A DNA stretch of 62,212 bases from Acidiferrobacterales bacterium (GCA_919902925.1 CAKKRZ010000068.1:3267-65478), one strand, 5' to 3'; shown: positions 5,362 through 62,212, counted from the stretch's first letter. Made by a program: numbers and translations. The notes: generated by a model not told the origin, from the sequence alone.

Positions 5362-5454
5362 CCCCCGCTCTGCCACGGTAACAACGGCCTTTCACCGGTC
5401 GGCCATTCTTTGCCACAATGCGGTCGCGTCCATGATTCTCGTCAAGGAATTCCC

Positions 5455-6387: not shown

Positions 6388-6436
6388 TCCAATCGCAGTC
6401 CGGCGGCGCTCGTGCCAGAATGGGCGCGAGGTCGCC

Positions 6437-8041
6437 ATGCCATCGCCGCCGGCACTGATCCAGGCCCTGCTCGACCCGCGCCGCTATCCACACGCGGCCG
6501 CGCCGATCGATCTGGTCGAGACGCACATCTCCTGGGTGCTGCTGACCGGCGAATACGCCTACAAGATCAAGAAACCGGTCGATCTCGGGTTTCTCGACTT
6601 CTCCACGCTCGAGCAGCGGCACCACTTCTGCGAGGAAGAACTGCGCCTCAATCGCCGGCTGGCGCCGCCGCTCTATCTCGGCCTCGTGCCGATCACCGGC
6701 ACACCGGACGATCCGCGCCTGGACGGGTTGGGGCCGGCCATCGAGTACGCGCTGCGCATGCGTCAGTTCGACCGCGAGCAGCAGCTCGACCGCCTGCTCG
6801 CCCGCGGCCAACTCACGGCCGCCCACATCGACGATCTGGCGGCGACACTAGCCGACTTTCACGCGCGCACCGCCGTGGCCGGCGTCGACAGCCCATACGG
6901 GGACCCGGACCATGTCTGGCAACCGGTGGCGGAGAACTTCGCCCAGATCGCCGGGCGCCTTGGCACGGAGCCGCCGGACAGGCTGGTGGCCCTGCGGCAG
7001 TGGAGCGAGGCAAGCTTTGCACAACAACGGGCGCGCATCGCCGCCCGCCGGCGCGACGGTTTCGTGCGCGAATGCCACGGCGACGCCCATCTCGCCAACA
7101 TGGTTCTGTGGGACGGGCGGGTAGTGCCGTTCGATTGCCTGGAATTCAATCCATCGCTGCGCTGGATCGACGTGATCAGCGAGATTGCGTTTACGGTCAT
7201 GGACCTTGGTGATCGCGGCCATCCCGATCTTGGCTGGCGCCTGCTCAATGCCTGGCTCGAGCACAGCGGTGACTATGCGGGCGTTGCCCTGCTGCGCTTC
7301 TACCTGACTTACCGCGCCATGGTGCGCGCCAAGGTCGCCATCATCCGGCAGCACCAGGCCGCTCCGGCCACGGCGGCGTTCGAGGCTGCCCGCGAAGAAT
7401 ACGAAGGCTATCTGCATCACGCCGAGCGCTACACCCGGCCGCCGCCGGCGGCGCTGCTGATCACCCACGGCTTGTCCGGTGCCGGCAAGACCACGGTCTC
7501 GCAACAGGTGATCGAGACACTCGGCGCCATCCGCGTGCGCAGCGATGTCGAGCGCAAACGGCTGCACGGACTCGCGGCCACGGCGCGCAGCCGCTCGCCG
7601 ATTGCCGGCGGGCTCTACGGCCGCGAGGCCGGAGACCGGACGTACGAGCGGTTGGCCGCCCTCGCCGGCGAACTGCTCGACGCCGGTGAGACCGTGGTCG
7701 TCGACGCCGCCTTTCTCGAGCGCGCGCGCCGCGAGCGCTTTCGTGCGCTCGCCCAGGCGCGGCACGTTCCGTTCCTGATTCTCGATCTGGTTGCCGACCA
7801 ATCCCGGCTGCGGGCGCGGATCGCGCAACGGATACACACCGGCGGCGACGCCTCCGAGGCCGGGACTGAAGTGCTCACCCACCAGATTGCGACACACGAA
7901 CCGTTGAACCGCGACGAAACGGCAGCGACCCTGACCGTCGACACAGCTGAGCCGTTGTCGGCGGCCGAACTTACCAGCCGGATTCGTCGTCGGCTGGCGC
8001 AGCGCCCGGGTGTGGAGCCGGGTGATGTTCCACGTCAGTAA
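6437..8041 (+). CDS. Bifunctional aminoglycoside-phosphotransferase-like / P-loop kinase-like ATP-binding protein
   Basis: 534 aa. N-terminal half is APH-like (ETHISWVLLTGEYAYKIKKPV, HGDAHLANM). C-terminal half has the P-loop GLSGAGKTT. Confidence 0.7.
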   Translation: MPSPPALIQALLDPRRYPHAAAPIDLVETHISWVLLTGEYAYKIKKPVDLGFLDFSTLEQRHHFCEEELRLNRRLAPPLYLGLVPITGTPDDPRLDGLGPAIEYALRMRQFDREQQLDRLLARGQLTAAHIDDLAATLADFHARTAVAGVDSPYGDPDHVWQPVAENFAQIAGRLGTEPPDRLVALRQWSEASFAQQRARIAARRRDGFVRECHGDAHLANMVLWDGRVVPFDCLEFNPSLRWIDVISEIAFTVMDLGDRGHPDLGWRLLNAWLEHSGDYAGVALLRFYLTYRAMVRAKVAIIRQHQAAPATAAFEAAREEYEGYLHHAERYTRPPPAALLITHGLSGAGKTTVSQQVIETLGAIRVRSDVERKRLHGLAATARSRSPIAGGLYGREAGDRTYERLAALAGELLDAGETVVVDAAFLERARRERFRALAQARHVPFLILDLVADQSRLRARIAQRIHTGGDASEAGTEVLTHQIATHEPLNRDETAATLTVDTAEPLSAAELTSRIRRRLAQRPGVEPGDVPRQ

Positions 8042-8059
8042 TGGGTACATTAAATATTC

Positions 8060-8088
8060 TTGACACCCCAATCTGTCGGGTCTAATCT
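8060..8088 (+). promoter_or_regulatory. Sigma70-type promoter of nrdJ (TTGACA-17 nt-TAATCT)
   Basis: TTGACA at 8060-8065 and TAATCT at 8083-8088 with a 17-nt spacer, in an AT-rich gap upstream of nrdJ. Confidence 0.55.
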
Positions 8089-8097
8089 TTGCGCTGA

Positions 8098-8113
8098 CCA
8101 CAATATGTTGTGT
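8098..8113 (+). promoter_or_regulatory. NrdR box (repressor operator) overlapping the predicted transcription start
   Basis: CCACAATATGTTGTGT resembles the palindromic NrdR-box consensus acaCwAtATaTwGtgt. A weaker candidate, CACAAATAACAACAG, lies at about 8152-8166. Confidence 0.6.
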
Positions 8114-8193
8114 TTTTGGTCAGAATTACCGGTACGCCCGGCCACCACCAGCCACAAATAACAACAGCCGTATATTAGGAGAGATCGAGAATT

Positions 8194-10320
8194 ATGGAGG
8201 CTATTCAACTCAAGGCCCGCCCCTCGGATACCCTCGACGTCCCCCTGCAGCCGGCCTCTTATGATATTTGGGACAAAAAGTACCGTCTCAAGACCAAGAC
8301 CGGCGTACCCGTCGACCAAAGCATTGAAGATACCTACCGCCGTATCGCCCGCGCCCTGGCCGATGTTGAGCCCGCCGCCGAGCAACGCGAGCACTGGTAT
8401 GGGCGTTTCCTGTGGGCGCTGCAACGCGGCGCCATTCCGGCCGGACGCGTCACCTCCAACGCCGGTGCCCAGGCACACAAGCCGGCCACCTCCACCATTA
8501 ACTGCACGGTTTCCCGCACGGTGCCCGACTCCATGGACGGCATCCTGCGCTCGGTGCACGAAGCCGGCCTGACGCTCAAGGCCGGCTGCGGCATCGGTTA
8601 CGAGTTCTCTACCCTCCGCCCCAAAGGGGCGTTTGTGAGCGGGGCCGGAGCGCACACCTCCGGCCCCCTCTCTTTTATGGATATTTTCAATGCCATGTGC
8701 TTTACCGTGTCCTCGGCCGGTGGCCGGCGCGGCGCGCAGATGGGCACCTTCGACATCGCCCACCCGGACATCCTGGACTTCATCCGCGCCAAGCGTGACG
8801 ACGGCCGGCTGCGCCAGTTCAACCTCTCCTGCCTGATCACCGATGAATTCGTGCGGGCCGTCAAGGACGATCAGCCCTGGGAACTGGTGTTCCCGGCCAA
8901 TACCCACGAATACGAGGATGCCGACAGCAAGATCGTCTGGCGCTACTGGCCGAGGACCGAAGGCTACATCACCGACCAGGTCGGCCGGGTCGCCTGCAAG
9001 GTCTACAAGACCCTGCCGGCGCGACGGCTGTGGGACCTGATCATGGCCTCCACCTACGACTACGCCGAGCCGGGCTTTATCCTGATCGACAAGATCAACG
9101 AGATGAACAACAACTGGTGGTGCGAAAACATCCGCGCCACCAACCCGTGCGGCGAACAACCGCTGCCGCCCTACGGCTCCTGCCTGCTGGGCTCGGTCAA
9201 CCTGACCAAATTTGTGGTCGAGCCGTTTACCGAACGCGCGCGCTTCGACTGGGAGCAGTATCGCCAGGTCGTGGCCGTCTTTACGCGCATGCTCGACAAC
9301 GTGGTCGAGATCAACGGCCTGCCGCTGGAACAGCAGCGCCACGAGATTACCCACAAACGCCGTCACGGCATGGGTTTCCTGGGCCTGGGTTCGACCATGA
9401 CCATGCTCACGATGAAGTACGGCTCGCCCGAGTCGCTGGTGTTCACCGATCAGGTGGCGCACGAGATGGCCAAGGTCGGCTGGGAGATCGGTATTGAACT
9501 GGCCCTCGAGAAGGGACCGGCGCCGATCATGGAGGAGGAGTTCACGGTCACCGAGGAAATGCTCGCCCGTCGCCCCGAGATGCGCCGTCACGGCCACAAA
9601 GCCGGCGATCGTCTCAAGGGCAAGGTGCTGCTGGCGAAGTACAGCCGCTACCTGCAGCAATTCCCGGATGAGCTCACCGACCGCCTGGCCGAGTCGGGCT
9701 GCCGCTACACCCACCACACTTCGATTGCCCCGACCGGCACGATCTCGCTATCGCTGGCCAACAATGCCAGCAATGGCATTGAACCGTCATTCGCCCACAA
9801 ATACAGCCGCAATGTGCTGCGCGAGGGGAAGAAGAGCAAGGAGAAGGTCGAGGTGTTCTCCTTCGAGCTGCAGGCCTTCCGCACCCTGGTCAACCCGGAC
9901 GCCGACCCGGACGCAACCGAGGCCGATAACAGCTTGCCGGACTACTTCATCAGCGCGGATACCGTCTCCCCGACCCAGCACGTCGATGTGCAGGCGGCGG
10001 CCCAGAAATGGGTGGATTCCTCGATTTCCAAGACCGCCAACGTGCCCACCGACTTCCCGTACGAGGATTTCAAGAACATCTACATGTACGCCTACGACAA
10101 GGGCCTGAAAGGCTGCACCACCTTTCGCTTCAACCCGGCCGCCTTCCAGGGCGTGTTGGTCAAAGACAAGGACCTGGAAAATACCCTCTACCGTTTTCAG
10201 CTCGACAACGGCGAGATCGTGGAGGTCAAGGGCAACGAGGAGATCGAATACGACGGCGAGCAGCACACCGCCGCCAATCTTTACGATGCACTGAAAGAAG
10301 GTTATTACGGACGCTTCTGA
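8194..10320 (+). CDS. nrdJa: Class II (adenosylcobalamin-dependent) ribonucleotide reductase, large N-terminal polypeptide
   Basis: 708 aa. Has the TNPCGEQPLPPYGSCLLGSVNL active-site loop and general class II RNR-like sequence. GGAGAG lies upstream of the ATG. Confidence 0.9.
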   Translation: MEAIQLKARPSDTLDVPLQPASYDIWDKKYRLKTKTGVPVDQSIEDTYRRIARALADVEPAAEQREHWYGRFLWALQRGAIPAGRVTSNAGAQAHKPATSTINCTVSRTVPDSMDGILRSVHEAGLTLKAGCGIGYEFSTLRPKGAFVSGAGAHTSGPLSFMDIFNAMCFTVSSAGGRRGAQMGTFDIAHPDILDFIRAKRDDGRLRQFNLSCLITDEFVRAVKDDQPWELVFPANTHEYEDADSKIVWRYWPRTEGYITDQVGRVACKVYKTLPARRLWDLIMASTYDYAEPGFILIDKINEMNNNWWCENIRATNPCGEQPLPPYGSCLLGSVNLTKFVVEPFTERARFDWEQYRQVVAVFTRMLDNVVEINGLPLEQQRHEITHKRRHGMGFLGLGSTMTMLTMKYGSPESLVFTDQVAHEMAKVGWEIGIELALEKGPAPIMEEEFTVTEEMLARRPEMRRHGHKAGDRLKGKVLLAKYSRYLQQFPDELTDRLAESGCRYTHHTSIAPTGTISLSLANNASNGIEPSFAHKYSRNVLREGKKSKEKVEVFSFELQAFRTLVNPDADPDATEADNSLPDYFISADTVSPTQHVDVQAAAQKWVDSSISKTANVPTDFPYEDFKNIYMYAYDKGLKGCTTFRFNPAAFQGVLVKDKDLENTLYRFQLDNGEIVEVKGNEEIEYDGEQHTAANLYDALKEGYYGRF

Positions 10321-10355
10321 ACCGAAGCCGCCACCCCGATACGGAGCTAGCGATT

Positions 10356-11033
10356 ATGCCCATCAAGATTGAAAAGAAGATCACCGGCTACGAGGTGGTC
10401 AAGAAGGAAGAGCAGGCCGCCAAACCGGCCGATCACAACGTCGTGCACATGCACGAGCAAATCGGGCGGCCGGAGATGCTGCTTGGCTCGACCTATAAGC
10501 TCAAGACGCCGCTGACCGAACATGCGATGTACGTCACCGTCAACGACATCGTGCTGAACCAGGGCACGCCATACGAAAAACGCCGGCCGTTCGAGATATT
10601 CATCAACTCGAAGAGCATGGACCACTTCCAGTGGGTGGTGGCGCTGACGCGCGTCGTCTCCGCGGTGTTCCGCAAGGGCGGCGACGTCACCTTCCTGGTG
10701 GAAGAGCTGCGTTCGGTGTTCGATCCGCGCGGCGGCTACTTCAAGAAGGGGCGTTACACCCCGTCGCTGGTCGCCGAACTGGGCGACATCATTGAATGCC
10801 ACCTCAGAATGATCGGACTGATTTCCACCGAAGGCCTCGACGAACACCGTCAGAAGCTGCTGGCCGAGAAACGCGCCGATTACGATGCCCGCCAGAAGCT
10901 GGCCACCGGCGGCGACAGCGCCGGCAGTTTTCCGGCCGACGCATCGCTGTGCGGCAAGTGCTCAACCAAGGCCGTCATCAAGATGGATGGTTGCCTGACC
11001 TGCCTCAACTGCGGCGAATCGAAATGCGGATGA
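10356..11033 (+). CDS. nrdJb: Class II ribonucleotide reductase, C-terminal polypeptide with Cys-rich tail
   Basis: Starts at ATG 10356 (MPIKIEKKITGY), 36 nt after the nrdJa stop. Ends with CGKCSTKAVIKMDGCLTCLNCGESKCG. This matches the split NrdJa/NrdJb arrangement known in Pseudomonas aeruginosa. Confidence 0.85.
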   Translation: MPIKIEKKITGYEVVKKEEQAAKPADHNVVHMHEQIGRPEMLLGSTYKLKTPLTEHAMYVTVNDIVLNQGTPYEKRRPFEIFINSKSMDHFQWVVALTRVVSAVFRKGGDVTFLVEELRSVFDPRGGYFKKGRYTPSLVAELGDIIECHLRMIGLISTEGLDEHRQKLLAEKRADYDARQKLATGGDSAGSFPADASLCGKCSTKAVIKMDGCLTCLNCGESKCG

Positions 11034-11161
11034 CGATGACCGGTGCGCTGATTGCGTCGATTCAGATCACAGACGCGCGCGATGCGTCAAGAGGTGAGTC
11101 CGAGTCGATTAAAAATTCGTGCCAACATCGATTGCAATCCGTTTTCTTTTGGATTAAGGTG

Positions 11162-11190
11162 TTGACACATAACGGTGATGTGCTAAAAAT
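11162..11190 (+). promoter_or_regulatory. Strong sigma70-type promoter with extended -10 (TTGACA-16 nt-TGcTAAAAAT)
   Basis: TTGACA at 11162-11167 and TGCTAAAAAT at 11181-11190. No protein gene lies downstream for about 400 nt. Confidence 0.6.
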
Positions 11191-11196
11191 CACCAC

Positions 11197-11508
11197 AAGA
11201 TTCAAGGTTCAGCAGTCACCATGTTGAACCACACGATGTCCGGCAGTGCGGCGGCAGCCACTAAGGATCGCAATGCGAGTGACGACATCGTGAAACGGAA
11301 TCGAAATCAGAATCGAGGGTGATTTTGGATCGATTGCGAAGTCTGAAAGCTGAAACCAGGCGATCACGCCCGACCACCCGTTGGGGGGCTGTAGCCTCCC
11401 CGTCAGTGGTTCACCGTCGCACGGTGCCCAGTACCACTCTTCCAGTGCCCCTTCTTCCCTCCCCAGACCAGGACCAGCTGATAATGACGGCCTACCGTCA
11501 TTATTTTT
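11197..11508 (+). ncRNA. Candidate structured RNA (about 310 nt) of unknown family, or a long regulatory leader
   Basis: Bounded by the promoter above and a perfect terminator. Internal helices are visible: GGTTCA/TGAACC (11207-11230), CACGATGTC/GACATCGTG (11231-11291), CACCG/CGGTG (11412-11426). No credible ORF. Confidence 0.4.
11481..11508 (+). terminator. Intrinsic terminator / attenuator
   Basis: ATAATGACGG-CCTA-CCGTCATTAT forms a perfect 10-bp stem followed by TTTT. Confidence 0.75.
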
Positions 11509-11604
11509 CACCGGCGGTCATCGTGGCGGAGATCCAGAGCAGTACCGGCAGGGGGCTCACGCCCGCTGTCAATCGTCCAACCCACAACCCAACAGGAGCT
11601 CCCC

Positions 11605-11652
11605 ATGGCTAAGAAAAAAGCCAAGAAGAAAGCAGCGAAGAAGAAGAAGTAA
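11605..11652 (+). CDS. 15-codon lysine-rich micro-ORF (MAKKKAKKKAAKKKK)
   Basis: AGGAG at 11594-11598, 6 nt upstream of the ATG. 10 of 15 codons are AAG/AAA. Too short for the ORF track. Coding status is unproven. Confidence 0.35.
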   Translation: MAKKKAKKKAAKKKK

Positions 11653-11767
11653 CGAAACGGCGGGAGACTGCCTACGGTGAGCTGACAGTCATACGGTTGG
11701 CCACCGCGTCGGGGATCGGGGAACTGATCACCGGCTAAGGACAGAAATCCTGCCGTGTTTCGGACAA

Positions 11768-11818
11768 ACCGGTAACACCCGTAGTGCCTGTAAGCGTGCT
11801 GGTGTTGCCGGTTTTTTA
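11768..11818 (+). terminator. Intrinsic terminator
   Basis: ACCGGTAACACC ... GGTGTTGCCGGT forms a 12-bp stem with one G-U pair, followed by TTTTTTA. Confidence 0.7.
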
Positions 11819-11975
11819 TTGCCCGCGTTCCATCGTCCAACCCCGGTCCGCGGCAGCCACCGTACTTAATATAGATTGTCCCCGGCTACCGGCCCCCTGC
11901 CTAGTAAAATTCCTAAGTTACTGAAAAAGCAGGAAATAGAATAGTTCCAGGCCTGCCAATCCTCGCCCGGATCGT

Positions 11976-12764
<789 letters not shown>

Positions 12765-12785
12765 TTAACCCTACCCTGACCCCCA

Positions 12786-15014
12786 ATGCCCTCTTTCACC
12801 GACATTTCGCGGCTGACGGTACTGGCGATCGCCGGCCTCTGTCTGTTAGTCACGGCCACCGGATTGCGGGCCGACGATATCAGCAGCTGCCCCCTGGATT
12901 TCTGGGTCGAGAAGCCCAAGAAACCTCCGCGCCCCGCTCCTGGCACACCGTCCACGATCAGCGCCGACGAGGTCCGCGCTGAAGGCCAAGAGTGGGTGGA
13001 ATTCACGGGTAACGTCGAATTGCGTCGCGGGACGGAACGCCTTACCACCGAACATCTGCGCTACCACAAACCCACGGATACCGTGGAGGCCACCGGCACG
13101 GTCAGTTTTGAAACTGCCGCCAAAGAACGCTTCCAGACCAGCTCCCTGAAACTGAGAATCGAGGACGAAATCGGTGAAACCGGTACTGCCCGCTACAGCT
13201 TCGGACTGATCCCCGCGCGGGGAGAAGGCCGCAAAATCGAGTTCCTCGGTCCCGGGATAACCCGTCTGCACGATGTCACTTACACCACCTGCCCGGAAGG
13301 ACAGGACAGCTGGTTTCTGAAGGCCCGGCAGCTCGATATCGACAAGAACGAGCAGCTCGGCCGCGCCAGGGGCGTCCGCATTGATTTCATGGACGTCCCG
13401 ATCTTCTACCTTCCATACATGTATTTTCCGATTGGCAACCAGCGCCAAAGCGGCGCTCTGCCCCCGCGTATCGGGCATAGCAGCACCTTTGGAAGCTACC
13501 TGGAAATCCCGTACTACCTGAACCTGGCCCCGAATTACGATGACACCTTCACCCCCCGCTATATGACGAAGCGGGGATTGATGCTACGCAACGAGTTTCG
13601 GTACATGACCCAGAACAGCGAGGGCAGTTTCTCGCTGGAAGGCCTGCCGCGTGACCAGATGGCCAACGAGGAACGTTATGCGGGTTACTACCATCACCAG
13701 CAGAAACTGGATGCCCGCTGGTCGACCACCATCGACCTGCGCGGCGTATCGGACAAGCAATACCTGGCCGATTTCGGCGACCATATCAACATCACCAGCC
13801 AGACACACTTGCCGACCAATGCCGAACTCGTCTACCGGGGTCAACGGTGGATATTCACCACCCGCGTGTTGTCGTTCGAGACCATCGACACAACCATACC
13901 GGTCGCCGATAAACCCTACCAGCGCCTTCCCCAGTTGACGCTCGGACTCCAGCCCGGCGGTATAAAAAATGGCTGGCAGCCCCATTTCGACGGGGAATGG
14001 GTGAATTTCGACCGCCGCAATACCACGCTGACCGGGCTTCGCACCACGGCCCGGCCGGCGTTGAGTTACCCGCTCAGCAAGGCGTGGGGGCATTTCATTC
14101 CCAAGGCGGGGGCGCGCTATACGTCCTACAACCTGAACAATGCACCCGACCCGGCGCCGTCACTGGCGCGCGGCTTTGCCAGCCTCGATACCGGCCTGGC
14201 CTTCGTGCGCGACACCAGTTACTGGGGTCGGGCCTACCAGCAGACCCTGGAACCGCGTTTGTACTACCTGTATGTCCCGGCCAAGAACCAGAATCACCTG
14301 CCGGTGTTCGATACTGCACTCGCCGATTTCAATTTCGACAGCCTGTTCCGCGAAAACCGTTTCACGGGCGGTGACCGGATCGGCGATGCCAACCAGCTGA
14401 CGTTGGCGGTCACCAGCCGTTTCCTGGACGATCGTGACGGTCATGAACGCCTGAGACTCTCCCTCGGGCAAATTTTTTATTATGCCGACCAGACGGTCAG
14501 CTTGCCGAACGGGATCGGGGTCGATAACCGCAACGACTCGGACCTGGTCGGCGATATGATCCTGTGGCTACCCAGCCATTGGTACATGCGACTCTCCGCA
14601 CAGTACGACCCGCGCAGCGATCGCGCCCAGAAGGAGAGCCTTACCTTTCAGTACCAACCCGACCGGCGGCGGATCGTGAACCTCGGTTACCGGTTTGTTC
14701 GCGACCAGGTCGGCCAGAGCGACATCTCGGTGGAATGGCCGATTGCCGGACGCTGGACGGCCCGGGCCCGAACGCTCTATTCCTTCCGGGATGACCGGAA
14801 CCTCGATTCCTACCTGGGCGCCGAATACAACGCCTGTTGCTGGGCGGCGCGCGTCTATGCCTACCGCCGATACGATGACACACGGGGCGCCGTCAATGGC
14901 ATTCATTTCGAGTTCCAGCTCGCCGGTCTGAGCAAATACGGTAAGGTGCCGGAAAGCCCGCTCAACCAAAGCTTGTTCAGTTTCCCAGCCCCCGCCAGCG
15001 CGCCCAAAGAGTGA
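12786..15014 (+). CDS. lptD: LPS-assembly outer membrane protein LptD
   Basis: 742 aa with a signal peptide and an OstA-like N-terminus plus a large beta-barrel. Sits in the conserved lptD-surA-pdxA-rsmA order. Confidence 0.9.
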   Translation: MPSFTDISRLTVLAIAGLCLLVTATGLRADDISSCPLDFWVEKPKKPPRPAPGTPSTISADEVRAEGQEWVEFTGNVELRRGTERLTTEHLRYHKPTDTVEATGTVSFETAAKERFQTSSLKLRIEDEIGETGTARYSFGLIPARGEGRKIEFLGPGITRLHDVTYTTCPEGQDSWFLKARQLDIDKNEQLGRARGVRIDFMDVPIFYLPYMYFPIGNQRQSGALPPRIGHSSTFGSYLEIPYYLNLAPNYDDTFTPRYMTKRGLMLRNEFRYMTQNSEGSFSLEGLPRDQMANEERYAGYYHHQQKLDARWSTTIDLRGVSDKQYLADFGDHINITSQTHLPTNAELVYRGQRWIFTTRVLSFETIDTTIPVADKPYQRLPQLTLGLQPGGIKNGWQPHFDGEWVNFDRRNTTLTGLRTTARPALSYPLSKAWGHFIPKAGARYTSYNLNNAPDPAPSLARGFASLDTGLAFVRDTSYWGRAYQQTLEPRLYYLYVPAKNQNHLPVFDTALADFNFDSLFRENRFTGGDRIGDANQLTLAVTSRFLDDRDGHERLRLSLGQIFYYADQTVSLPNGIGVDNRNDSDLVGDMILWLPSHWYMRLSAQYDPRSDRAQKESLTFQYQPDRRRIVNLGYRFVRDQVGQSDISVEWPIAGRWTARARTLYSFRDDRNLDSYLGAEYNACCWAARVYAYRRYDDTRGAVNGIHFEFQLAGLSKYGKVPESPLNQSLFSFPAPASAPKE

Positions 15015-15052
15015 TACGTGGTATCCTAGCGGCCGTTCGTTCGCACCCGCCC

Positions 15053-16360
15053 ATGTCCGTTTCCGCGTTCCCCCTTCAACCCATGCTCCGGCTGCTGGCC
15101 GTGCTGGCCTGTCTGCTGGCCGGCGCCGTAGCGGCGGCCGAGGCCACGGATGCGCTCGACCGCATCGTGGCGGTCGTCAACGACGACGTCATCACCCTGG
15201 CGCAACTGCGCGAGCGCGTGCAGGCGGCCCGGCGCCAGATCGTCCTCGAGAAGATCGCACCGCCGGCGGACGACGTGCTGCAGAAACAGATCCTCGAGCG
15301 GCTGATCCTGGAACGCCTTCAGTTGCAGCTGGCCGAAAAATCCGGCCTGCAGCTCAGCGATGCCGATGTCGAGCGCGCCATCGAGGGCATCGCCGGCCGC
15401 AACAAGATGACGGTTGCGGCCCTGCGCGAACGCATGAAGAAAGAGGGCATCGATCCCGCCCTGCACCGGGCCCAGGTGCGCACCCAGATACTCATCGAAC
15501 AGCTGGTCGACCGCGAGGTGCGCAGCCGTGTCAGCGTAACCGACAGCGAGATCGACGGCTTCCTCGCCGGTCTGTCCGACGTCACGGAGTACCGGCTCTC
15601 GCACATCTTTCTGTCGCTGCCGGAATCGGCCACGCCGGCGACCATTGAGGCGGCACGCAAACGCGCCGACGAACTCGTGGCCAAACTGCGGGCCGGCGGC
15701 AACTTCCAGCAACTCGCCGTCGCCCATTCCCAGGCCCCGGATGCCCTGCAGGGTGGACACATCGGCTGGAAGAAGCCCGGCCAGTTGCCGGACCTGTTCG
15801 TCGTCGCCCTCAAGACGCTGAGCCCGGGCGGGGTCAGCGATGTCCTGCGCAGCCCGAACGGATTTCATGTCCTCAAACTGCACGAGAGCCGCGGCGGACC
15901 CTCGCTGCAACCGGTCCGGCAGACGCGCGCGCGTCACATCCTGCTGCGCACCAGCGAAATTCTCTCGGCCGACGAGGCGCGCCAGCGCCTGCTGGCCCTG
16001 CGCGGGCGCATCGAGCACGGCGAGGATTTCGCCGTCCTGGCCCGCGCCCATTCCGAAGACCCGGGATCGGCGACGCGCGGCGGCGATCTGGGCTGGATGG
16101 CGCCGGGCCAACTGGTCCCGGAATTCCAGCGGGCGATGGACGCCCTCAAACCCGGCGAGCTGAGCGCACCGGTGCAGTCGTCCTATGGCCTGCACCTGAT
16201 CCAGGTCATGGAACGCCGCGAGCAGGGTACCAACGCCGAGCGCCTGCGCAACGCCGCACGCACGCAATTGCACATGCGCAAGGCCGACGAACGCTATCGC
16301 CAGTGGGTGCGGCAGCTGCGCGACGAGGCCTACGTCGAAACCCACCTCGACACCCCTTGA
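15053..16360 (+). CDS. surA: Periplasmic chaperone / peptidyl-prolyl isomerase SurA
   Basis: Signal peptide MLRLLAVLACLLAGAVAAAEA and two parvulin domains (HILL..., GGDLGW). Start is uncertain (15053 or 15083). Confidence 0.9.
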   Translation: MSVSAFPLQPMLRLLAVLACLLAGAVAAAEATDALDRIVAVVNDDVITLAQLRERVQAARRQIVLEKIAPPADDVLQKQILERLILERLQLQLAEKSGLQLSDADVERAIEGIAGRNKMTVAALRERMKKEGIDPALHRAQVRTQILIEQLVDREVRSRVSVTDSEIDGFLAGLSDVTEYRLSHIFLSLPESATPATIEAARKRADELVAKLRAGGNFQQLAVAHSQAPDALQGGHIGWKKPGQLPDLFVVALKTLSPGGVSDVLRSPNGFHVLKLHESRGGPSLQPVRQTRARHILLRTSEILSADEARQRLLALRGRIEHGEDFAVLARAHSEDPGSATRGGDLGWMAPGQLVPEFQRAMDALKPGELSAPVQSSYGLHLIQVMERREQGTNAERLRNAARTQLHMRKADERYRQWVRQLRDEAYVETHLDTP

Positions 16361-16413
16361 CCGGCCACCAACCGGTTTTTGCCACACCCCGGCCTTTGCG
16401 GTGAAATGCCGTC

Positions 16414-17409
16414 ATGCCGACCTTCCCGGTCATTGCCATTACCCCCGGCGAGCCCGCCGGCATCGGTCCCGACCTGTGCGTGGGGCTCAAACCTCCACGC
16501 GATGCCGCACTGGTGCTGGTGGCCGATCCGGCCATCCTGCGGGAACGCGCCCGCGAACTGAACCGGCCATTCGAATTTCACGCCTGGCCCGGGCGCGCGC
16601 TGGCCGAGCCACGCCTGTACGTGCTGGCCATTCCGTCCCCGCGGCCGGTCAGCCCCGGGCAACTCGACCCGGGCAATGCCCGCTATGTGCTGGCCACGCT
16701 GGCGCGCGCGGCCAATGGCTGCCTGGCCGGGGAATTTGACGCGCTCGTTACCGGACCCGTGCACAAGGGCGCGATCAACGACGCCGGGCTGCCGTTTACC
16801 GGCCACACCGAATTCCTGGCGGATCGGGCCGGCGGGAAACCGGTGGTCATGATGCTGGCCGCCCCGGGCCTGCGCGTGGCGCTTGCCACCACCCACCTGC
16901 CGCTGGCCGAGGTGCCGCGCGCGATCACGCGCGAGCGGCTCACCACCGTGCTGCGCGTACTGCAGGCCGACCTGATTGTCCGATTCGGGATCGTCCGGCC
17001 GCGCATCCGGGTGCTGGGGCTCAACCCGCACGCCGGCGAGGGCGGCCATTTGGGGCGCGAAGAGATCGACGTGATCGAGCCGGTGATCCGGCAGCTGCGC
17101 GGGGAAGGCATGCAACTCGAAGGGCCGGTGCCGGCCGACACCGCCTTTCTGCCCGACACGCTGGCCGAAGCCGACGCCGTGCTCGCCCTGTACCACGACC
17201 AGGGCCTGCCGGTGCTCAAACACCACGACTTCGCCCATGCCGTGAACATCACCCTCGGATTGCCCTTTGTGCGCACCTCGGTCGATCACGGCACGGCGCT
17301 GGAGCTGGCCGGCACCGGCCGCGCCGATCCTTCAAGTCTGATCGCCGCGATTGAACTGGCCTGTAATATTGCTGGAACGCAGATGAACGCAGATTCCAAA
17401 AGGAGATGA
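16414..17409 (+). CDS. pdxA: 4-hydroxythreonine-4-phosphate dehydrogenase PdxA
   Basis: GHTEFLA, NPHAGEGGHLG and HGTA motifs. The last ~10 codons and the stop lie inside a repeat element. Confidence 0.9.
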   Translation: MPTFPVIAITPGEPAGIGPDLCVGLKPPRDAALVLVADPAILRERARELNRPFEFHAWPGRALAEPRLYVLAIPSPRPVSPGQLDPGNARYVLATLARAANGCLAGEFDALVTGPVHKGAINDAGLPFTGHTEFLADRAGGKPVVMMLAAPGLRVALATTHLPLAEVPRAITRERLTTVLRVLQADLIVRFGIVRPRIRVLGLNPHAGEGGHLGREEIDVIEPVIRQLRGEGMQLEGPVPADTAFLPDTLAEADAVLALYHDQGLPVLKHHDFAHAVNITLGLPFVRTSVDHGTALELAGTGRADPSSLIAAIELACNIAGTQMNADSKRR

Positions 17410-17541
17410 ACGCAGATTTCCCCTGGTATTACCCACCGGACGAACATCTGCGTTTATCTGCGCTCGGTTATCCGCGATGAACAGGGACGTTCGAGTGCTG
17501 AGAGCGCAGGATGCGCAAGAACAGCCGTTCATCTGCGTTTC
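17374..17541. repeat. Hairpin-forming repeat element built from AACGCAGAT / ATCTGCGTT units
   Basis: Forward copies lie at about 17376, 17386 and 17409. Inverted copies lie at about 17445, 17455 and 17530. It fills the pdxA-rsmA gap. Confidence 0.75.
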
Positions 17542-17550
17542 AATAGCCAT

Positions 17551-18330
17551 ATGACACTATTCCAGCCCCGCAAGCGCTTCGGCCAGCATTTCCTGCGCGA
17601 GCGCGGCGTCATCGAGCGCATCCTGCATGCCCTCAATCTGCAAGCCGACGACATCGTGGTCGAGATCGGACCCGGCCGCGGTGCGCTGACGCGCGGGCTG
17701 GTCGGTCGCGTCGCCGAGCTGCACGTGGTTGAGCTCGATCGCGACCTGGTCGAATTTCTGCGTCGCGAATTTTCTCCGTCGCAGCTGACTGTGCACAGCG
17801 CCGATGCCCTGCGCTTCGATTTCCGCCCCCTGTCCCACGACCAGCGGCGCCTGCGCATCATCGGCAACCTGCCGTACAACATCTCCACCCCGCTGCTCTT
17901 CCATCTGCTCGACCAGGTGGAGGTCGTCCAGGATATGCTGTTCATGCTGCAAAAAGAGGTGGTCGAGCGCATGGCCGCCGGCCCCGGTGGCAAGGACTAC
18001 GGGCGCCTCTCGGTCATGATCCAGTGGCGTGCCCAGGTCGAGAAACTGTTCAACGTGCCGCCGGGCGCCTTCACGCCGCCGCCGCGGGTCGACTCCAGCG
18101 TCGTGCGCCTCGTCCCCCACGCCACGCCACCGGTGACGGTGACCGATCCGGGGCGATTTGCGCTCACCGTGCAGGCCGCCTTCGCCCACCGGCGCAAGAC
18201 GCTGCGCAATACCCTCAAGGGTCTGGTGGACGAATCCGGGTTCGCCCGGGCCGGCATTGACCCCGTGCGCCGGGCCGAAACCCTGACGCTGGCCGAGTTT
18301 GCACGCCTGGCCTGCCAAGTGACCGGATAA
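17551..18330 (+). CDS. rsmA: 16S rRNA (adenine1518/1519-N6)-dimethyltransferase
   Basis: FGQHFL, VVEIGPGRGALT and GNLPYNISTP motifs. Conserved position after pdxA. Confidence 0.92.
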   Translation: MTLFQPRKRFGQHFLRERGVIERILHALNLQADDIVVEIGPGRGALTRGLVGRVAELHVVELDRDLVEFLRREFSPSQLTVHSADALRFDFRPLSHDQRRLRIIGNLPYNISTPLLFHLLDQVEVVQDMLFMLQKEVVERMAAGPGGKDYGRLSVMIQWRAQVEKLFNVPPGAFTPPPRVDSSVVRLVPHATPPVTVTDPGRFALTVQAAFAHRRKTLRNTLKGLVDESGFARAGIDPVRRAETLTLAEFARLACQVTG

Positions 18331-34962: not shown

Positions 34963-35127
34963 CAGTTTGTTGAAAACTGTCCTTCCATGGACTTTTTCAA
35001 CCCAAAAAGCAAAAAGTGCGATTTTTGCCTTTCTCCATTTTTCAAAAGCTTGGCGCTTTTGAAAAATGACGGTACATCCCTGTACCGCACCGCAGTTTGT
35101 TGAAAAACAAGTTTTTCAACAAACTGC
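34962..35127. repeat. AT-rich intergenic region with nested palindromes built on TTGAAAA/TTTTCAA
   Basis: ACAGTTTGTTGAAAAC lies at 34962-34977. A 14-bp stem spans 35036-35068. A perfect 17-bp palindrome, GCAGTTTGTTGAAAAAC/GTTTTTCAACAAACTGC, spans 35092-35127. Probably acts as a bidirectional terminator. Confidence 0.8.
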
Positions 35128-55196: not shown

Positions 55197-55388
55197 CGCG
55201 TCCCCTGCGGTGCGCGTGTTGTGCCAGATATCCCGTGGACCTATAAGTCATAAGCTCGGGGGTCGGTGTGGTACCCGGTGTGCAAGCCCACCTCGAGTGG
55301 GAAGCCTGAAGGGTCCCGAAGACCTGCCAATCTTGAACCTTCGGTTCAAGGATGACGGTGCACACGGCACTCGCGGAGGGCGTCTTAT
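55197..55388 (+). ncRNA. ssrS: 6S RNA
   Basis: Lies between zapA and the 5-FCL ligase gene, matching E. coli zapA-ssrS-ygfA. The 5' arm TCCCCTGCGGTGCGCGTGTTGTGCC pairs with the 3' arm GGTGCACACGGCACTCGCGGAGGG. The conserved CUUGAACC..GGUUCAAGG hairpin is present. Confidence 0.85.
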
Positions 55389-58069: not shown

Positions 58070-58180
58070 GCCTCCCTCTCCCTCCGGGAGAGGGAGTGAG
58101 GGTGAGGGCGGAGGGTTAGGATGAGGGGCGCATTTCATGCACCCCCTCATCCCAGCCTTCTCCCGGAGGGAGAAGGAGTT
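58070..58180. repeat. GC-rich hairpin repeats (CTCCCTCTCCC/GGGAGAGGGAG, GATGAGGGG/CCCCTCATC, CTTCTCCC/GGGAGAAG)
   Basis: Three adjacent short stem-loops were read directly in the EVE-ppiA intergenic gap. Confidence 0.7.
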
Positions 58181-58233: not shown

Positions 58234-58809
58234 ATGAAACGCCGAAATCTTATAGCCCTCGCCGCCCTGCTGCTATCCGCCACCTTCTCTGCCAGCGCCG
58301 CGCCGCCCAACCCGCGTGTGAAGCTCACCACCAGCATGGGCGTCATCATTATCGAACTCGATCGACAAAAGGCCCCGGTCACAGTCAAGAACTTCCTGCA
58401 ATACGTCCGCGACCGCCACTACGACGGCACCATCTTTCACCGCGTGATGCCGGGCTTCATGATCCAGGGCGGCGGCTTCGTCCCCGGCCTGAACGAAAAA
58501 CCCACCCGCGCCCCGATCCGCAACGAGGCGGACAATGGCCTGAGCCACGTCACCGGCACCATCGCCATGGCACGCACCCCCGATCCGCACTCGGCGAGCG
58601 CACAGTTCTTCATCAACGTGAATGACAATGACCAACTCAATCACAGCAGCAAGACCGACGAGGGCTGGGGCTACGCCGTGTTCGGGCGCGTGGTGCAGGG
58701 CATGGACGTGGTGATGAAGATTGTCGCGGTCCAGACCGCCGATATCGGCCCGCACGAGAAAGTGCCAGTGAAGGATGTGGTGATCAGGAAGGTTGAAGTG
58801 ATCAAGTAA
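58234..58809 (+). CDS. ppiA: Periplasmic peptidyl-prolyl cis-trans isomerase (cyclophilin A type)
   Basis: Signal peptide plus [21 protein letters not shown] and SASAQFFIN cyclophilin motifs. Confidence 0.92.
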
Positions 58810-58829
58810 CCGCACAATGCGCGGTTACT
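58806..58829 (+). terminator. Stem-loop at ppiA stop
   Basis: GTAACCGC-acaatgc-GCGGTTAC. The U-tract (TTGTCATT) is weak. Confidence 0.45.
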
Positions 58830-59105
58830 TGTCATTGTGACCGCCACGGATGGCGGAAATGCTGAAAACGCAGGAGCAGTTTTCAGCCGAGCGTGAGGAT
58901 GCTTCTGTCATTGCGAGCACAGCGAAGCAATCTCCCAAACTCTGGAACGCCCTTCGGGCGCAATGAAAGCTTACTTGCAGGTGGCTGACCCGCGGCAGGT
59001 TACCTTCTTTTGTTCCGGCCAAAAGAAGGTAACCCAAGAAAAGGCCGCCCCCGATGCCGCGCTTCTCTTGCGCTCCGCGGCTTTGGGACCCACGCTGTCC
59101 CACGC
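58830..59105. repeat. Mosaic of unrelated REP-like hairpins
   Basis: Includes GTCATTGCGAGCACAGCGAAGCAATC and a perfect 15-bp stem, GGTTACCTTCTTTTG/CAAAAGAAGGTAACC (58998-59034). No credible coding potential. Confidence 0.7.
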
Positions 59106-59262
59106 GACTCCTGTCGCGGGGGACAGTCGCCCACGTCCTGTGGGCGACCCTTCGGGCGCATTCCCAAAGCCTTTCGGTGCTCAGGTGCGGCATAGGGGGT
59201 TGAACGTCAAACCCAACCAACCCATCCAGCGCAATTCGCTGCGCTCATTGCGCCCTACGGGC
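59106..59262 (+). repeat. Left inverted repeat flanking the helicase-nuclease island
   Basis: Its reverse complement aligns with 62064-62212 at roughly 90 percent identity by eye, with one short indel. Contains the hairpins GTCGCCCAC/GTGGGCGAC and GCGCAAT/ATTGCGC. Confidence 0.85.
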
Positions 59263-59369
59263 TACGTCGTCTTCACGGCTCGTTTCAGATCGACCCAAGG
59301 GAATATACAAATCCACACCCATCGGCACGCAGGGGTCGATCATGACGATGGCTTGTATGTTTATTGCTT

Positions 59370-61904
59370 TTACCGGCTTTTACGCTGCGCAGGACACTGG
59401 GGTTTCAACTGGCATGTTTTGCAATGTTTACCAGTCTTCGGCTCATAGCTTCTATCCTTGATGTCTTTAAAGACATTTTCAAGCATTTGTTTGCTCTCCT
59501 CGATAAATGAGGAGCTACAAACAGCCGAGATTGAATTTTGCGGAGAAAAGACTGGGACGATTTCAACGCATTGAATGTTATGTGCGTTCTGCGCAACCAT
59601 ACCCAGGACACCTGACCTTACCTGTAATTCATACTGTAACTGCTGATCTGGTTTGACTTCGGCGGATGTTTTCCATTCCTTCAATACAACGACCCCTTTC
59701 CGCGTTTCTACAAGCGCATCGATCACCCCCTCGACTTGTCCTGAAGTTCCTTGGACATATCTGTAGTGCTTTTCAATTGCGAGGGGTTTTTCTGATGTAC
59801 TGGAGATCCTCTGAACCAATTCCCGGTAGGCGCGCGACATTTTGGCTAAACTCTTTCCGGACAACTTCCGAAAAGGTGAATCACCGTCGGTAAGGCCTTT
59901 CTGGAAACACTGCTCTAGTGATCGAACATCATTTGGCATATTGGCTCGTAGATAATATTCCAGCGCCTTGTGCATTCTCGATCCCATGCTCTGGGGGTGT
60001 GACCAGTTGGGAAGGAACCTGCCCTCATGATATGCAGCAAATTTTAAAGGGCATTGTGCATAGAGATTAAGGTGCGTAGCCGCAACAATCGGTGGTGTAG
60101 TCGAAACCGACGGCGCCATTATTTTGGAATTAGAAGATTCTTTCTTGTTACAGCGAATCGGAACAAGGCCTGCACCAAAAGCAGATAATGTTTTGCGGGG
60201 CTTGACCGTGGTGTGAACAAGGATCAAAAGATCCCGCGCACGTGTCGCCCCAACATAAGCCAACCGAGAATCTTCCTTATTGGCTGGATTCGGAAACGAC
60301 TGGGGACCACCCTTTCCCAATTTCATCAAGAGCACAATCGGGAACTCAAGGCCCTTAGCGGCGTGAATTGTCATTACCTGAATAGCATCAGGTCGACTTA
60401 CAACCGCTGGTGTTACTGAAATATCTCGGTCTTGTGTGCTCTTCAGGGCTGGCCAAGCTTCTTTAAACGTGAAGGACTGCGGCGATAAAGTGCTATCCAA
60501 TGCATTCGCGGCCGTAGCAAGAGGCCGCAATACCCGAATATTTTCAAAATCTCTTTTGCAGAGGGATTGAGAGAGCAAGCTTTTAACCTTTGGGTGATTG
60601 TATAAGCCCGATAAGGCTTTACCCGGTCGCCAATCCAGTGGTTCGCCAATAGTCTGTTTCATGGCGCGGTCTGCACGGGATGACTGGAATTGCACTTTTA
60701 ATTTATTGGCCAGCGCTTTTTCCTTAATTTCCTTAATCGTCTTGCTACTTAAGTTCCGCGAGAGGATTGCAATATCAGTAGGTTTCAGATTTTTATTAGA
60801 GCTAAGTATTGTTCTGGCAAAGAACAGAGCCTTATCAAGGGTTCCTGTGTAGATATGTGCTCCGATGCCGTGGCTATTTTCCTTGCGGTGGGATCGCAGC
60901 AGTTTTAACATTCCTTCACGTTTGAGGCTTGGAACCCTTTTACCGAGAAATCTGTAGGCGGTGTTCAATATAGGTTGAGTCGATCGGAAATTATCCGTTA
61001 AGTAATACTTCTTCGCTCGTGTTTTTCTTATGAACCAAAGCATGTTGTCTGTGCCTGCGCCGCGCCACTCATAAATTTGCTGGCAGGGATCGCCAACTAC
61101 CCACATGTTGAGTCGCTTGCCTGAAAGCAGCATAAGTATTTCAGCCTGTGTACGGCTGGTATCTTGAAACTCATCAACTAGCATCATATCGAACCTAGAA
61201 GTGAACTCGTTGGTCAGCTTCTTGTGGTGCTTTAAGCAGTGCAGAAAATTTCTGCTCAACGTGTCATGGTCGATTCCTCCCAGCTCTTTGAGTTTCTCAA
61301 TGTACTGTTTGTGCGCTTGCCGTAGCTCCCGAAGAGTGGGTATTTTGAAGTCGAAGTAAAAGCCGAAACGGTCTCCCATCTCATTCATTCTGTCGCGAAT
61401 TTCTCGTTGGATTTTCCGCTTCTTCTTTCCTTGAGCGGCATTGGCATGGATGTATTTTTCTAGCAGACCAAGAATGCCTGCCTTATCTGCGGTGACGATC
61501 CAAGAGAATCTCGAATAAGCAGTAGCCTGGCCAAAAGTCTCCCAAGCGCATTGCAGGAGAAGTACTCGCTGCTCGGCTTCGCTGATTAGCCGTGCAGTGG
61601 GCATTAGTTCTCGATGCATTGCCTGCTGTGCAAACTCCCAGTTGAGAGCATCTATAGTGGAAATTCGCAGTTTCTGAGCACGTTCGCCAAGGCGCTCGTA
61701 AGTCCGGTTATACAACTCAGCTGTAGCTTTGCGCGTGAACGTTGTTACAAGTATGCGGCTAGGATCAATGTCGCGTTCTTCCACTAAATGAAATATACGT
61801 TCGGTGAGCGTGGTGGTCTTGCCTGTACCTGCACCAGCAATTACGCAGCCGGCCCCCTTCTTATGGGAGACTGCTCTTAATTGCTCTTCAGTCAAAGATT
61901 TCAC
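59370..61904 (-). CDS. UvrD/Rep-family SF1 helicase fused to a Cas4/AddB-type (4-Cys Fe-S) PD-(D/E)XK nuclease
   Basis: 844 aa. Helicase motifs: GAGTGKTT, VDEFQD, GDPCQQIYEWRGA, DNFRS, TIHAAKGLEFP, YVGATRAR. Nuclease motifs: YAQCPLKF, IDAL..LKEWK, QYELQ, CKTCQLKPQC. The gene is AT-rich. Confidence 0.85.
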   Translation of the reverse strand: MKSLTEEQLRAVSHKKGAGCVIAGAGTGKTTTLTERIFHLVEERDIDPSRILVTTFTRKATAELYNRTYERLGERAQKLRISTIDALNWEFAQQAMHRELMPTARLISEAEQRVLLLQCAWETFGQATAYSRFSWIVTADKAGILGLLEKYIHANAAQGKKKRKIQREIRDRMNEMGDRFGFYFDFKIPTLRELRQAHKQYIEKLKELGGIDHDTLSRNFLHCLKHHKKLTNEFTSRFDMMLVDEFQDTSRTQAEILMLLSGKRLNMWVVGDPCQQIYEWRGAGTDNMLWFIRKTRAKKYYLTDNFRSTQPILNTAYRFLGKRVPSLKREGMLKLLRSHRKENSHGIGAHIYTGTLDKALFFARTILSSNKNLKPTDIAILSRNLSSKTIKEIKEKALANKLKVQFQSSRADRAMKQTIGEPLDWRPGKALSGLYNHPKVKSLLSQSLCKRDFENIRVLRPLATAANALDSTLSPQSFTFKEAWPALKSTQDRDISVTPAVVSRPDAIQVMTIHAAKGLEFPIVLLMKLGKGGPQSFPNPANKEDSRLAYVGATRARDLLILVHTTVKPRKTLSAFGAGLVPIRCNKKESSNSKIMAPSVSTTPPIVAATHLNLYAQCPLKFAAYHEGRFLPNWSHPQSMGSRMHKALEYYLRANMPNDVRSLEQCFQKGLTDGDSPFRKLSGKSLAKMSRAYRELVQRISSTSEKPLAIEKHYRYVQGTSGQVEGVIDALVETRKGVVVLKEWKTSAEVKPDQQLQYELQVRSGVLGMVAQNAHNIQCVEIVPVFSPQNSISAVCSSSFIEESKQMLENVFKDIKDRSYEPKTGKHCKTCQLKPQCPAQRKSR

Positions 61905-62063
61905 AGCGTGGGAATGGGCTGGAGTATTTTTTCTGCTTCTAGTCTAACTGAGCATCAAGAATTAACGCAGCAGTTATGGTTAATTCCCCACCATAGGGTG
62001 TGTCGGCGCACCTCCGAGGCGGATTTTGATGTGGAGGGATGTACGAATGCCTGGCCCACACAG

Positions 62064-62212
62064 CACGTAGGGCGCAATGAGCGCAGCGAATTGCGCCGTA
62101 TGGGTTTGACGTTCAACCCCCTATGCCGCGCCTGAGCACCGCAAGGCTTTGGGAATACGCCCCGCAGGGGTCGCCCACAGGACGTGGGCGACTGTCCCCC
62201 GCGACAGGAGTC
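62064..62212 (-). repeat. Right inverted repeat flanking the island (truncated by the window end)
   Basis: Reverse complement of 59106-59262. The window ends inside it, so its outer boundary is unknown. Confidence 0.85.

Follow-up and report, generated by a model that had tools for sequence, protein, structure and literature searches.

A 62,212-nucleotide stretch of DNA from an Acidiferrobacterales bacterium (GCA_919902925.1, CAKKRZ010000068.1:3267-65478; the whole stretch is hereafter called the window) contains near its right end a single AT-rich gene for a UvrD-like helicase fused to a Cas4-like nuclease, bracketed by inverted copies of a hairpin-rich repeat. What is this gene, and how did it come to lie between the repeats? 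An initial annotation, made from the sequence, had proposed a horizontally acquired helicase–nuclease gene, possibly carried as cargo of a non-autonomous element that ends in the inverted repeats. We conclude, with a probability of about 0.6, that it is an accessory gene for a one-polypeptide helicase–nuclease that was acquired horizontally, varies between strains and lies at the centre of a palindrome resident in the host. This reading is carried by the anatomy of the locus, its composition, its variability between strains, the residence of the repeat, the absence of a partner gene and the placement of the protein in its family. A role in defence or against mobile DNA is plausible. The gene adds a member to a known protein type, and the locus is not a new mobile element or system.

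A stand-alone helicase–nuclease gene in a GC-rich host

The AT-rich core of the locus consists of the gene and its short flanks:

59370..61904, minus strand: UvrD-Cas4-like helicase–nuclease gene; GTG start, 844 amino acids, intact open reading frame (ORF), 47.2% GC
60189..61895, minus strand: superfamily 1A (SF1A) UvrD/PcrA-like helicase part (residues 4-572); Pfam PF00580 and PF13361, with PDB profile matches
59391..60083, minus strand: C-terminal PD-(D/E)XK nuclease domain (residues 608-838); PF12705, 1+3 cysteines and D..ExK
59264..59369, minus strand: untranslated 3′ end of the core, containing a terminator-like hairpin (59314-59329)
61905..62061, minus strand: AT-rich core sequence upstream (5′) of the gene, presumably holding the promoter

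The contrast between an AT-rich core and GC-rich flanks, noted at the outset, is borne out by the numbers: the core (59264-62061) has a GC fraction of 0.475 against 0.641 in window positions 1-58800, and the gene lies about 17 GC points below its host. As also noted initially, neither a partner nor a transposase nor any other gene lies inside the repeats: we found no second credible gene between the arms, and no AddB/RecC-type partner at the window locus. There are no cas genes within 10 kb on either side, and 61905-62061 contains no match to a consensus sigma-70 promoter.

The locus was extended through exact-protein and neighbour-protein (PpiA, YmdB-like) look-ups in metagenome contigs. The exact protein occurs on 2.8-3.2-kb Hainich groundwater contigs, both ends of which fall within the repeat. 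One metagenome contig, L001, is 100% identical and reaches 69 bp beyond the window end. The whole locus is covered by L015, which belongs to a contig of 171.8 kb with 99.9% identity to the window; frameshifted gene calls in this contig suggest a long-read assembly. Since the join between AT-rich gene and GC-rich host appears in three independent assemblies (the window, NODE_1512 and L015), always in one orientation, the junction is real and not chimeric. The right flank holds a 56-residue ORF (orf56), ilvA and rpiA, convergent with ppiA.

A gene-less sister strain retains the palindrome

A strain without the gene is represented by L017, which lies on a contig of 142 kb assembled from the groundwater sample that also yielded L015 (ERZ1286166). 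Identity between L017 and L015 is 98% over the left flank and 94% over the right. On the left, their alignment stops at L015 position 10603, about window position 58836, past the ppiA terminator. The distance from that terminator to the inner end of the right arm is 355 bp in L017 and 3,225 bp in the window (58837-62061). The intergenic region comprises the following parts:

58803..58831, plus strand: ppiA terminator hairpin with a perfect 11-bp stem
58837..58947, no strand: hairpin-rich spacer, present in the gene-bearing haplotype only, no L017 counterpart
58948..59263, no strand: left repeat unit (IR-L), about 317 bp, 63% GC, several hairpins
59229..59253, no strand: left central hairpin module, GCGCAAT-TCGCTGCGCTC-ATTGCGC
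62062..62212 and on to about 62368, no strand: right repeat unit (IR-R), truncated where the window stops
62072..62096, no strand: right central hairpin module, GCGCAAT-GAGCGCAGCGA-ATTGCGC

At the same outer junction, L017 carries a right unit that is about 89-91% identical to IR-R. Its 355 bp form a diverged unit in left orientation, recognized by an nhmmer model of the other three copies (E 6.5e-24) and about 63% identical to IR-L over about 270 nt. The two units abut head to head at one central hairpin, GCGCAAT-GAGCGCAGCGA-ATTGCAC. Because the gene-less strain keeps both units at the locus, the repeat is resident and does not represent transposon ends; the palindromic repeat pair is a property of the intergenic region, gene or no gene. 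The initial annotation had proposed looking for an empty site downstream of ppiA in related genomes. A gene-less strain indeed exists, but what it lacks is not the whole element including the arms, since both units are retained. The horizontal acquisition of a stand-alone gene, proposed at the same time, is upheld by the GC gap, the absence of the gene from the sister strain and the missing partner.

At sites that differ between IR-L and IR-R, the right unit of L017 matches IR-R, and the innermost ~45 nt of IR-L contain an indel and substitutions in common with the L017 left unit. IR-L is thus a mosaic. Coverage, read from contig names, was lower for helicase contigs than for flank contigs in two samples (12 versus 25, or 48%, and 25 versus 34, or 74%), a difference that fits a mixed population.

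In the history we propose, the gene would have entered by horizontal transfer and would now vary among co-occurring strains. It would sit at the symmetry centre of two ~317-bp hairpin-rich units that stand head to head between the convergent ppiA and orf56-ilvA, and the inverted repeats would be host sequence in a convergent-terminator spacer rather than the ends of a cassette.

The same comparison could be read in the opposite direction, with the gene-bearing state ancestral, the gene lost from the sister strain by hairpin- or short-repeat-mediated deletion between the two central hairpin modules, and the empty site a scar. If the deletion ran from one direct GCGCAAT heptamer (59229) to the other (62072), it would yield the exact L017 junction, in which a single GAGCGCAGCGA-loop hairpin separates the arms. 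In addition, the arms differ by about 5-9%, compared with 2% divergence of the flanking genes between the strains, so the arms may predate the strain split. However, L017 cannot have arisen from the window haplotype by deletion alone, because the L017 left unit has diverged from IR-L to the extent given above and the 111-bp spacer (58837-58947) is missing. The gene, at a GC fraction of 0.47, also shows little amelioration. We therefore regard this ancestral-gene scenario as possible but unlikely.

Two further observations concern the two haplotypes. Eight short-read Hainich contigs of the left flank (L019-L026) end inside or just past ppiA, at L015 9591-10594; these breaks lie near the point at which the haplotypes diverge, as a presence/absence polymorphism is expected to break assembly. 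At the far left (L017 1-5027 versus L015 1-2782), identity between the two strains falls from the 98% seen over most of the left flank to only 87.7% over a CreD/response-regulator segment, beyond which they do not align; this suggests that strains of the groundwater population are mosaic.

Anatomy of the flanking inverted repeat

Within the window, 59106-59263 can be paired with 62062-62212 over three blocks at 93-95% complementarity, and the inverted-repeat modules had no match at all in shuffled sequence. L001 extends the repeat to 59037, and in the spanning contig L015 each arm measures about 317 bp, the two being about 90% identical (window 58948-59263 and L015 13830-14136, the latter equivalent to window position 62062 to ~62368). 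The inverted repeats first described are therefore present, but the length of about 150 bp assigned to them was too short, as the window ends inside the right arm. Extension past 62212, which the initial annotation had called for, places the outer end of the right arm at ~62368. The outer flanks, ...CTCTGGAA/CG and CG/CACGAGAA, share no direct repeat that would mark a target-site duplication.

Each unit has an 18-bp terminal inverted repeat of its own (58949-58966 and 59245-59262 in IR-L). The repeat unit folds at −94.6 kcal/mol (z = −8), far below shuffled sequences. The diverged L017 copy shows compensatory changes at 13 of 93 predicted pairs, which, in a comparison of four sequences only, hints that the hairpins of the unit may be kept by such changes. 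The 45 bp at the palindrome centre, comprising the hairpin and 10 nt, are inverted on either side of the gene (59219-59263 and 62062-62106): the TCGCTGCGCTC loop of the left module is inverted relative to the right module and to the single copy of the gene-less strain (L017 13127-13151), which has the orientation of the right module.

In structure, the units resemble the hairpin repeats known as repetitive extragenic palindromic (REP) sequences and bacterial interspersed mosaic elements (BIMEs), as well as miniature inverted-repeat transposable elements (MITEs), in that they are intergenic and GC-rich and contain several hairpins and short terminal inverted repeats. Unlike these, they occur at one locus only: motif and profile searches found no extra copy in the 62-kb window and the added flank, about 70 kb of host DNA. 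Their length of ~317 bp also far exceeds that of classical REPs. Within the limits of these searches, the units are thus REP/MITE-like but not abundant, and the genomic REP cluster that the initial annotation had entertained as a counter-explanation was not seen within this host DNA. A 22-mer of the unit gave two chance matches only in 185,579 species genomes of GTDB, both in metagenome-assembled genomes (one from Sphingomonas, one from Verrucomicrobia) and without wider similarity; the host species is therefore either not represented there or lacks the repeat. The unit has no match in IMG/VR, the PLSDB plasmids or the INPHARED phages, and Rfam searches of the locus assigned the repeat units to no RNA family.

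Between an EVE-domain gene and ppiA lies a long palindrome (58070-58179) that includes, at 58072-58096, the hairpin CTCCCTCTCCCTCCGGGAGAGGGAG with a perfect 11-bp stem; its Rfam matches are weak and only miRNA-like. A similar CCCTCTCCCCGGAGGGAGAGGG hairpin is found directly outside the right repeat arm (L015 ~14156-14180).

The anatomy bears directly on the idea that the units form a MITE-like, composite non-autonomous transposon, mobilized in trans by a transposase from another locus, with the helicase–nuclease gene as its cargo. Long arms that are 90-93% identical in the gene-bearing haplotype, the terminal inverted repeats and strong fold of each unit, and short-read assemblies that break at the arms every time all speak for such an element; the gene-bearing left arm is also far closer to the right arm than to the gene-less left arm. 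Yet the right arm and its outer junction are unchanged in the gene-less strain, where the left unit is present too, and the outer ends lack a target-site duplication. No further copy turned up in any of the collections searched (the window and flank, GTDB by 22-mer, IMG/VR, plasmids and phages), and six homolog loci scanned for flanking inverted repeats had none. The proposal that the gene is cargo of an inverted-repeat-bounded element is thus not sustained, and we consider a transposon of this kind improbable.

Domain architecture and conserved motifs of the protein

ORF calling and Pfam agree with the first description of an 844-residue minus-strand ORF with superfamily 1 (SF1) UvrD/Rep motifs. 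Pfam places UvrD-helicase at residues 4-293 (E 1e-54), followed by UvrD_C (PF13361), and PDDEXK_1 (PF12705) at residues 608-838 (E 3e-18; 70.4 bits against a cut-off of 22). The motifs YAQCPLKF, IDAL..LKEWK and CKTCQLKPQC, described initially as 1+3 cysteines around a D..ExK core, are all found in the translation. In an alignment of 35 full-length relatives, Cys618, Asp729, Glu743, Lys745, Gln761, Cys828, Cys831 and Cys837 are invariant, as are the Walker A motif GAGTGKT and DEFQD. Given this invariance, the 1+3 cysteine and D..ExK pattern is a conserved feature of the family. The C-terminal nuclease presumably binds a 4Fe-4S cluster, and the SF1A motor would be expected to have 3′-5′ polarity.

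The AlphaFold2 model of the protein is confident (predicted local distance difference test score 87.6, predicted template modelling score 0.88). A Foldseek search of the PDB with this model returned AddA, RecB, UvrD/PcrA and AdnB as the closest structures. The helicase part matches UvrD/PcrA/Rep in a PDB profile search at E 1e-65. The nuclease domain matches phage RecB-family exonucleases structurally (target-normalized template modelling score 0.67-0.73); its profile gave only weak matches to PDB sequences (MGME1, AdnB and Cas4, E 0.05-0.5), and the Cas4 models of PADLOC match it at E 1.5e-6.

A rare compact subfamily of UvrD-Cas4-like fusions

About 77 full-length relatives of ~845 residues share 37-76% identity with the protein, after which matches fall to E 1e-45. 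An exhaustive profile search of 1.84 billion proteins yielded about seven full-length representatives at 50% clustering, scoring 940-1268 bits. Below this gap lies a large population of UvrD-PDDEXK_1 fusions of 900-1050 residues, which score at most 319 bits and are 23-27% identical. Pairwise alignments show these to be collinear with the 844-residue protein from end to end and to share its cysteine positions. The protein thus appears to belong to a rare compact (~845-residue) subfamily of UvrD-Cas4-like fusions, an assignment made from collinear pairwise alignment and shared Pfam architecture.

UvrD-Cas4-like fusions form the largest, monophyletic branch of pfam12705, stand alone or beside Type III restriction-modification or Dcm/Vsr genes, and are often found in non-conserved or defence contexts; a function in defence systems has been predicted for them (Hudaiberdiev et al. 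2017, PMC5704561). The initial annotation had matched this architecture, with this kind of boundary, to no named system. The fusion class is in fact a known one (PMC5704561), but it is true that no named, validated defence system covers it. Our protein has the same domain order as the class, a UvrD-like SF1 helicase followed by a PF12705 nuclease with four cysteines, but its subfamily is compact and sharply separated in score. In the subfamily contexts examined, no Type III restriction-modification or Dcm/Vsr neighbours were seen, although an N6_N4 methyltransferase is near the gene at two homolog loci (L006 and L192).

AddA, RecB and AdnB likewise carry a C-terminal PD-(D/E)XK nuclease behind an SF1A motor, and they are top matches in the Foldseek and PDB profile searches. 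In contrast to them, the 844-residue protein has no partner subunit and is about 300-400 residues shorter. Its nuclease also differs from those of AddA and RecB in carrying the 1+3 cysteine motif, which is typical of AddB, Cas4 and Dna2 but not of AddA or RecB. The NCBIfam equivalog models for AddA, RecB and RecB-like proteins score 86-130 bits against cut-offs of 650-1700, and the score for Cas4 proper (PF01930) is 13.8 bits, the cut-off being 22.7, so none of these is passed.

Gabija GajB shares the UvrD-like helicase core, with many GajB models matching down to E 5e-47 and PDB GajB at 1e-34, but these matches cover only the helicase part, and GajB has no C-terminal nuclease domain. No GajA (OLD nuclease) neighbour was found in the window, where the gene is flanked by ppiA and orf56/ilvA. 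Nhi and Hna embody the same concept, one polypeptide with helicase and nuclease modules acting alone. Nhi has an N-terminal nuclease and a C-terminal SF1 helicase of another clade, and Hna an SF2 helicase and a C-terminal nuclease; with an N-terminal UvrD-type SF1A helicase and a C-terminal nuclease, the 844-residue protein falls outside both definitions. None of the PADLOC matches listed is a Nhi or Hna model. A scan of viral and metagenome contigs with the full-length alignment, which keyed on generic helicase motifs, returned only ordinary UvrD/PcrA genes, 25-32% identical and over the helicase part alone, and alignment of the nuclease domain against IMG/VR found no relative. Searches of the PLSDB plasmids and INPHARED phages with tblastn found no family member, the top two-domain matches being 22-26% identical.

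Genomic contexts of homologs

We examined nine homolog contexts, summarized here by locus:

L007: one-gene AT-rich islet at 7918-10581 (GC 0.446 versus 0.63), 83 bp and 35 bp from its housekeeping neighbours
L190: one-gene AT-rich islet at ~7840-10665 (GC 0.388 versus 0.535), between ybeY and scpB
L188: housekeeping neighbours; GC matches the surroundings
L006: adjoins an integrase, a resolvase and a methyltransferase
L009-L011: within a TraG/serine-recombinase region that resembles an integrative conjugative element
L187: adjoins a PIN/RHH toxin-antitoxin pair
L193-L196: adjoins a Gp49/HTH toxin-antitoxin pair
L192: defence island at 3805-17674 with GmrSD_N, HEPN_RiboL-PSP, a Helicase IV-like protein and an 840-residue HTH-N6/N4 methyltransferase; GC matches the surroundings

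The initial annotation had reasoned that homologs always found beside an AddB/RecC-like partner would indicate ordinary recombination repair; no such partner was present in any of the nine contexts. Among the loci compared, no conserved 5′ or 3′ flanking sequence that could serve as a homing-like signal was visible. The homologs in L007 and L190 are 63% and 53% identical to the window protein, and their islets contain neither a recombinase nor flanking repeats. Housekeeping neighbours in L190 include uvrA, scpAB and xerD. A single-gene AT-rich islet is thus found in at least three genomes, those of the window host, L007 and L190, and the compact subfamily behaves as an accessory, horizontally moving single gene.

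A plausible role in conflict with foreign DNA

The AddA/RecB-like architecture suggests that the most likely activity of the protein is helicase-driven nucleolytic processing of DNA ends. In the mechanism that we propose, the enzyme would load on DNA ends or nicks, its UvrD/PcrA-type motor would unwind the DNA and pass one strand to the attached nuclease, and linear or replicating foreign DNA would be degraded as by a miniature, partner-less AddA/RecB. Such end degradation would fit a role in defence or in conflict with mobile elements, which the homolog contexts and the literature on the wider class make plausible; conflict with foreign DNA is, on this basis, the most likely biological role. 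Defence has been predicted for the stand-alone UvrD-Cas4-like class since 2017, and the searches made here found no experimental validation. With its absence from a co-occurring sister strain, the gene is a reasonable candidate for a one-gene anti-phage or anti-plasmid system. The locus also offers a natural example of foreign DNA at the exact centre of a long palindrome that is resident in the host, can be compared with a gene-less counterpart, and is relevant to how single genes enter bacterial chromosomes without a recombinase.

Several points weigh against an acquired accessory gene in a resident palindrome. Likeness between the two arms is 91% where the gene is present but only 63% in the gene-less haplotype, and neither this difference nor the inverted central 45 bp is explained by simple insertion into a resident palindrome alone. 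The sister strain may never have had the gene or may have lost it, and the search for further copies of the unit covered about 70 kb of the host genome. On the functional side, the defence link of the compact subfamily is a plausible prediction from contexts and from the wider class, and PADLOC 2.0 contains no dedicated model, giving only generic GajB/helicase and Cas4 matches. Finally, four of the nine contexts place the gene among housekeeping genes, and its GC content matches the surroundings in L188 and L192; because of such contexts and matching composition, long-term residence and a repair role are possible in some lineages.

Taken further, this last point would make the protein an ordinary enzyme of recombinational repair or an accessory of replication, equivalent in a single chain to AddAB, RecBCD or AdnAB and with no part in conflict with foreign DNA. 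The top structural matches to AddA, RecB, UvrD and AdnB, the housekeeping neighbours in L188 and L190, and the absence of a GC difference in L192 and L188 speak for it. Against it stand the variability of the gene within one population, its foreign composition in three hosts and its extreme rarity, with about seven representatives at 50% clustering. All NCBIfam repair equivalogs remain far below their cut-offs (86-201 bits against 650-1700), the partner subunit is absent from every context examined, and the gene is found in a defence island, in a conjugative-element-like region and beside toxin-antitoxin pairs. A role confined to repair or replication therefore seems to us improbable.

We give still less credence to the idea that the ~845-residue protein is encoded by a self-propagating single-gene element, whose own helicase–nuclease would promote insertion at hairpin or palindromic DNA and leave an inverted duplication of the palindrome centre where a transposon would leave direct target-site repeats. 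Very improbable as it is, it would explain the tight, recombinase-free, AT-rich one-gene islets in at least three unrelated genomes, the inverted 45 bp that flank the gene at the palindrome centre and the more homogeneous arms of the gene-bearing haplotype. An invertible segment is rejected, as three flank-linked assemblies show one orientation and there is no recombinase nearby, and so is an abundant REP cluster, which the motif and profile searches of the window do not show despite the REP-like structure.

Other features of the window

A 6S/SsrS RNA gene (Rfam RF00013, 87.9 bits) lies on the plus strand at 55199-55383, between zapA and the 5-formyltetrahydrofolate cyclo-ligase gene, an order that is the usual gammaproteobacterial arrangement. 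Two perfect AT-rich hairpins, whose stems measure 14 bp and 16 bp, stand side by side at 35036-35068 and 35092-35127 in GC-rich surroundings.

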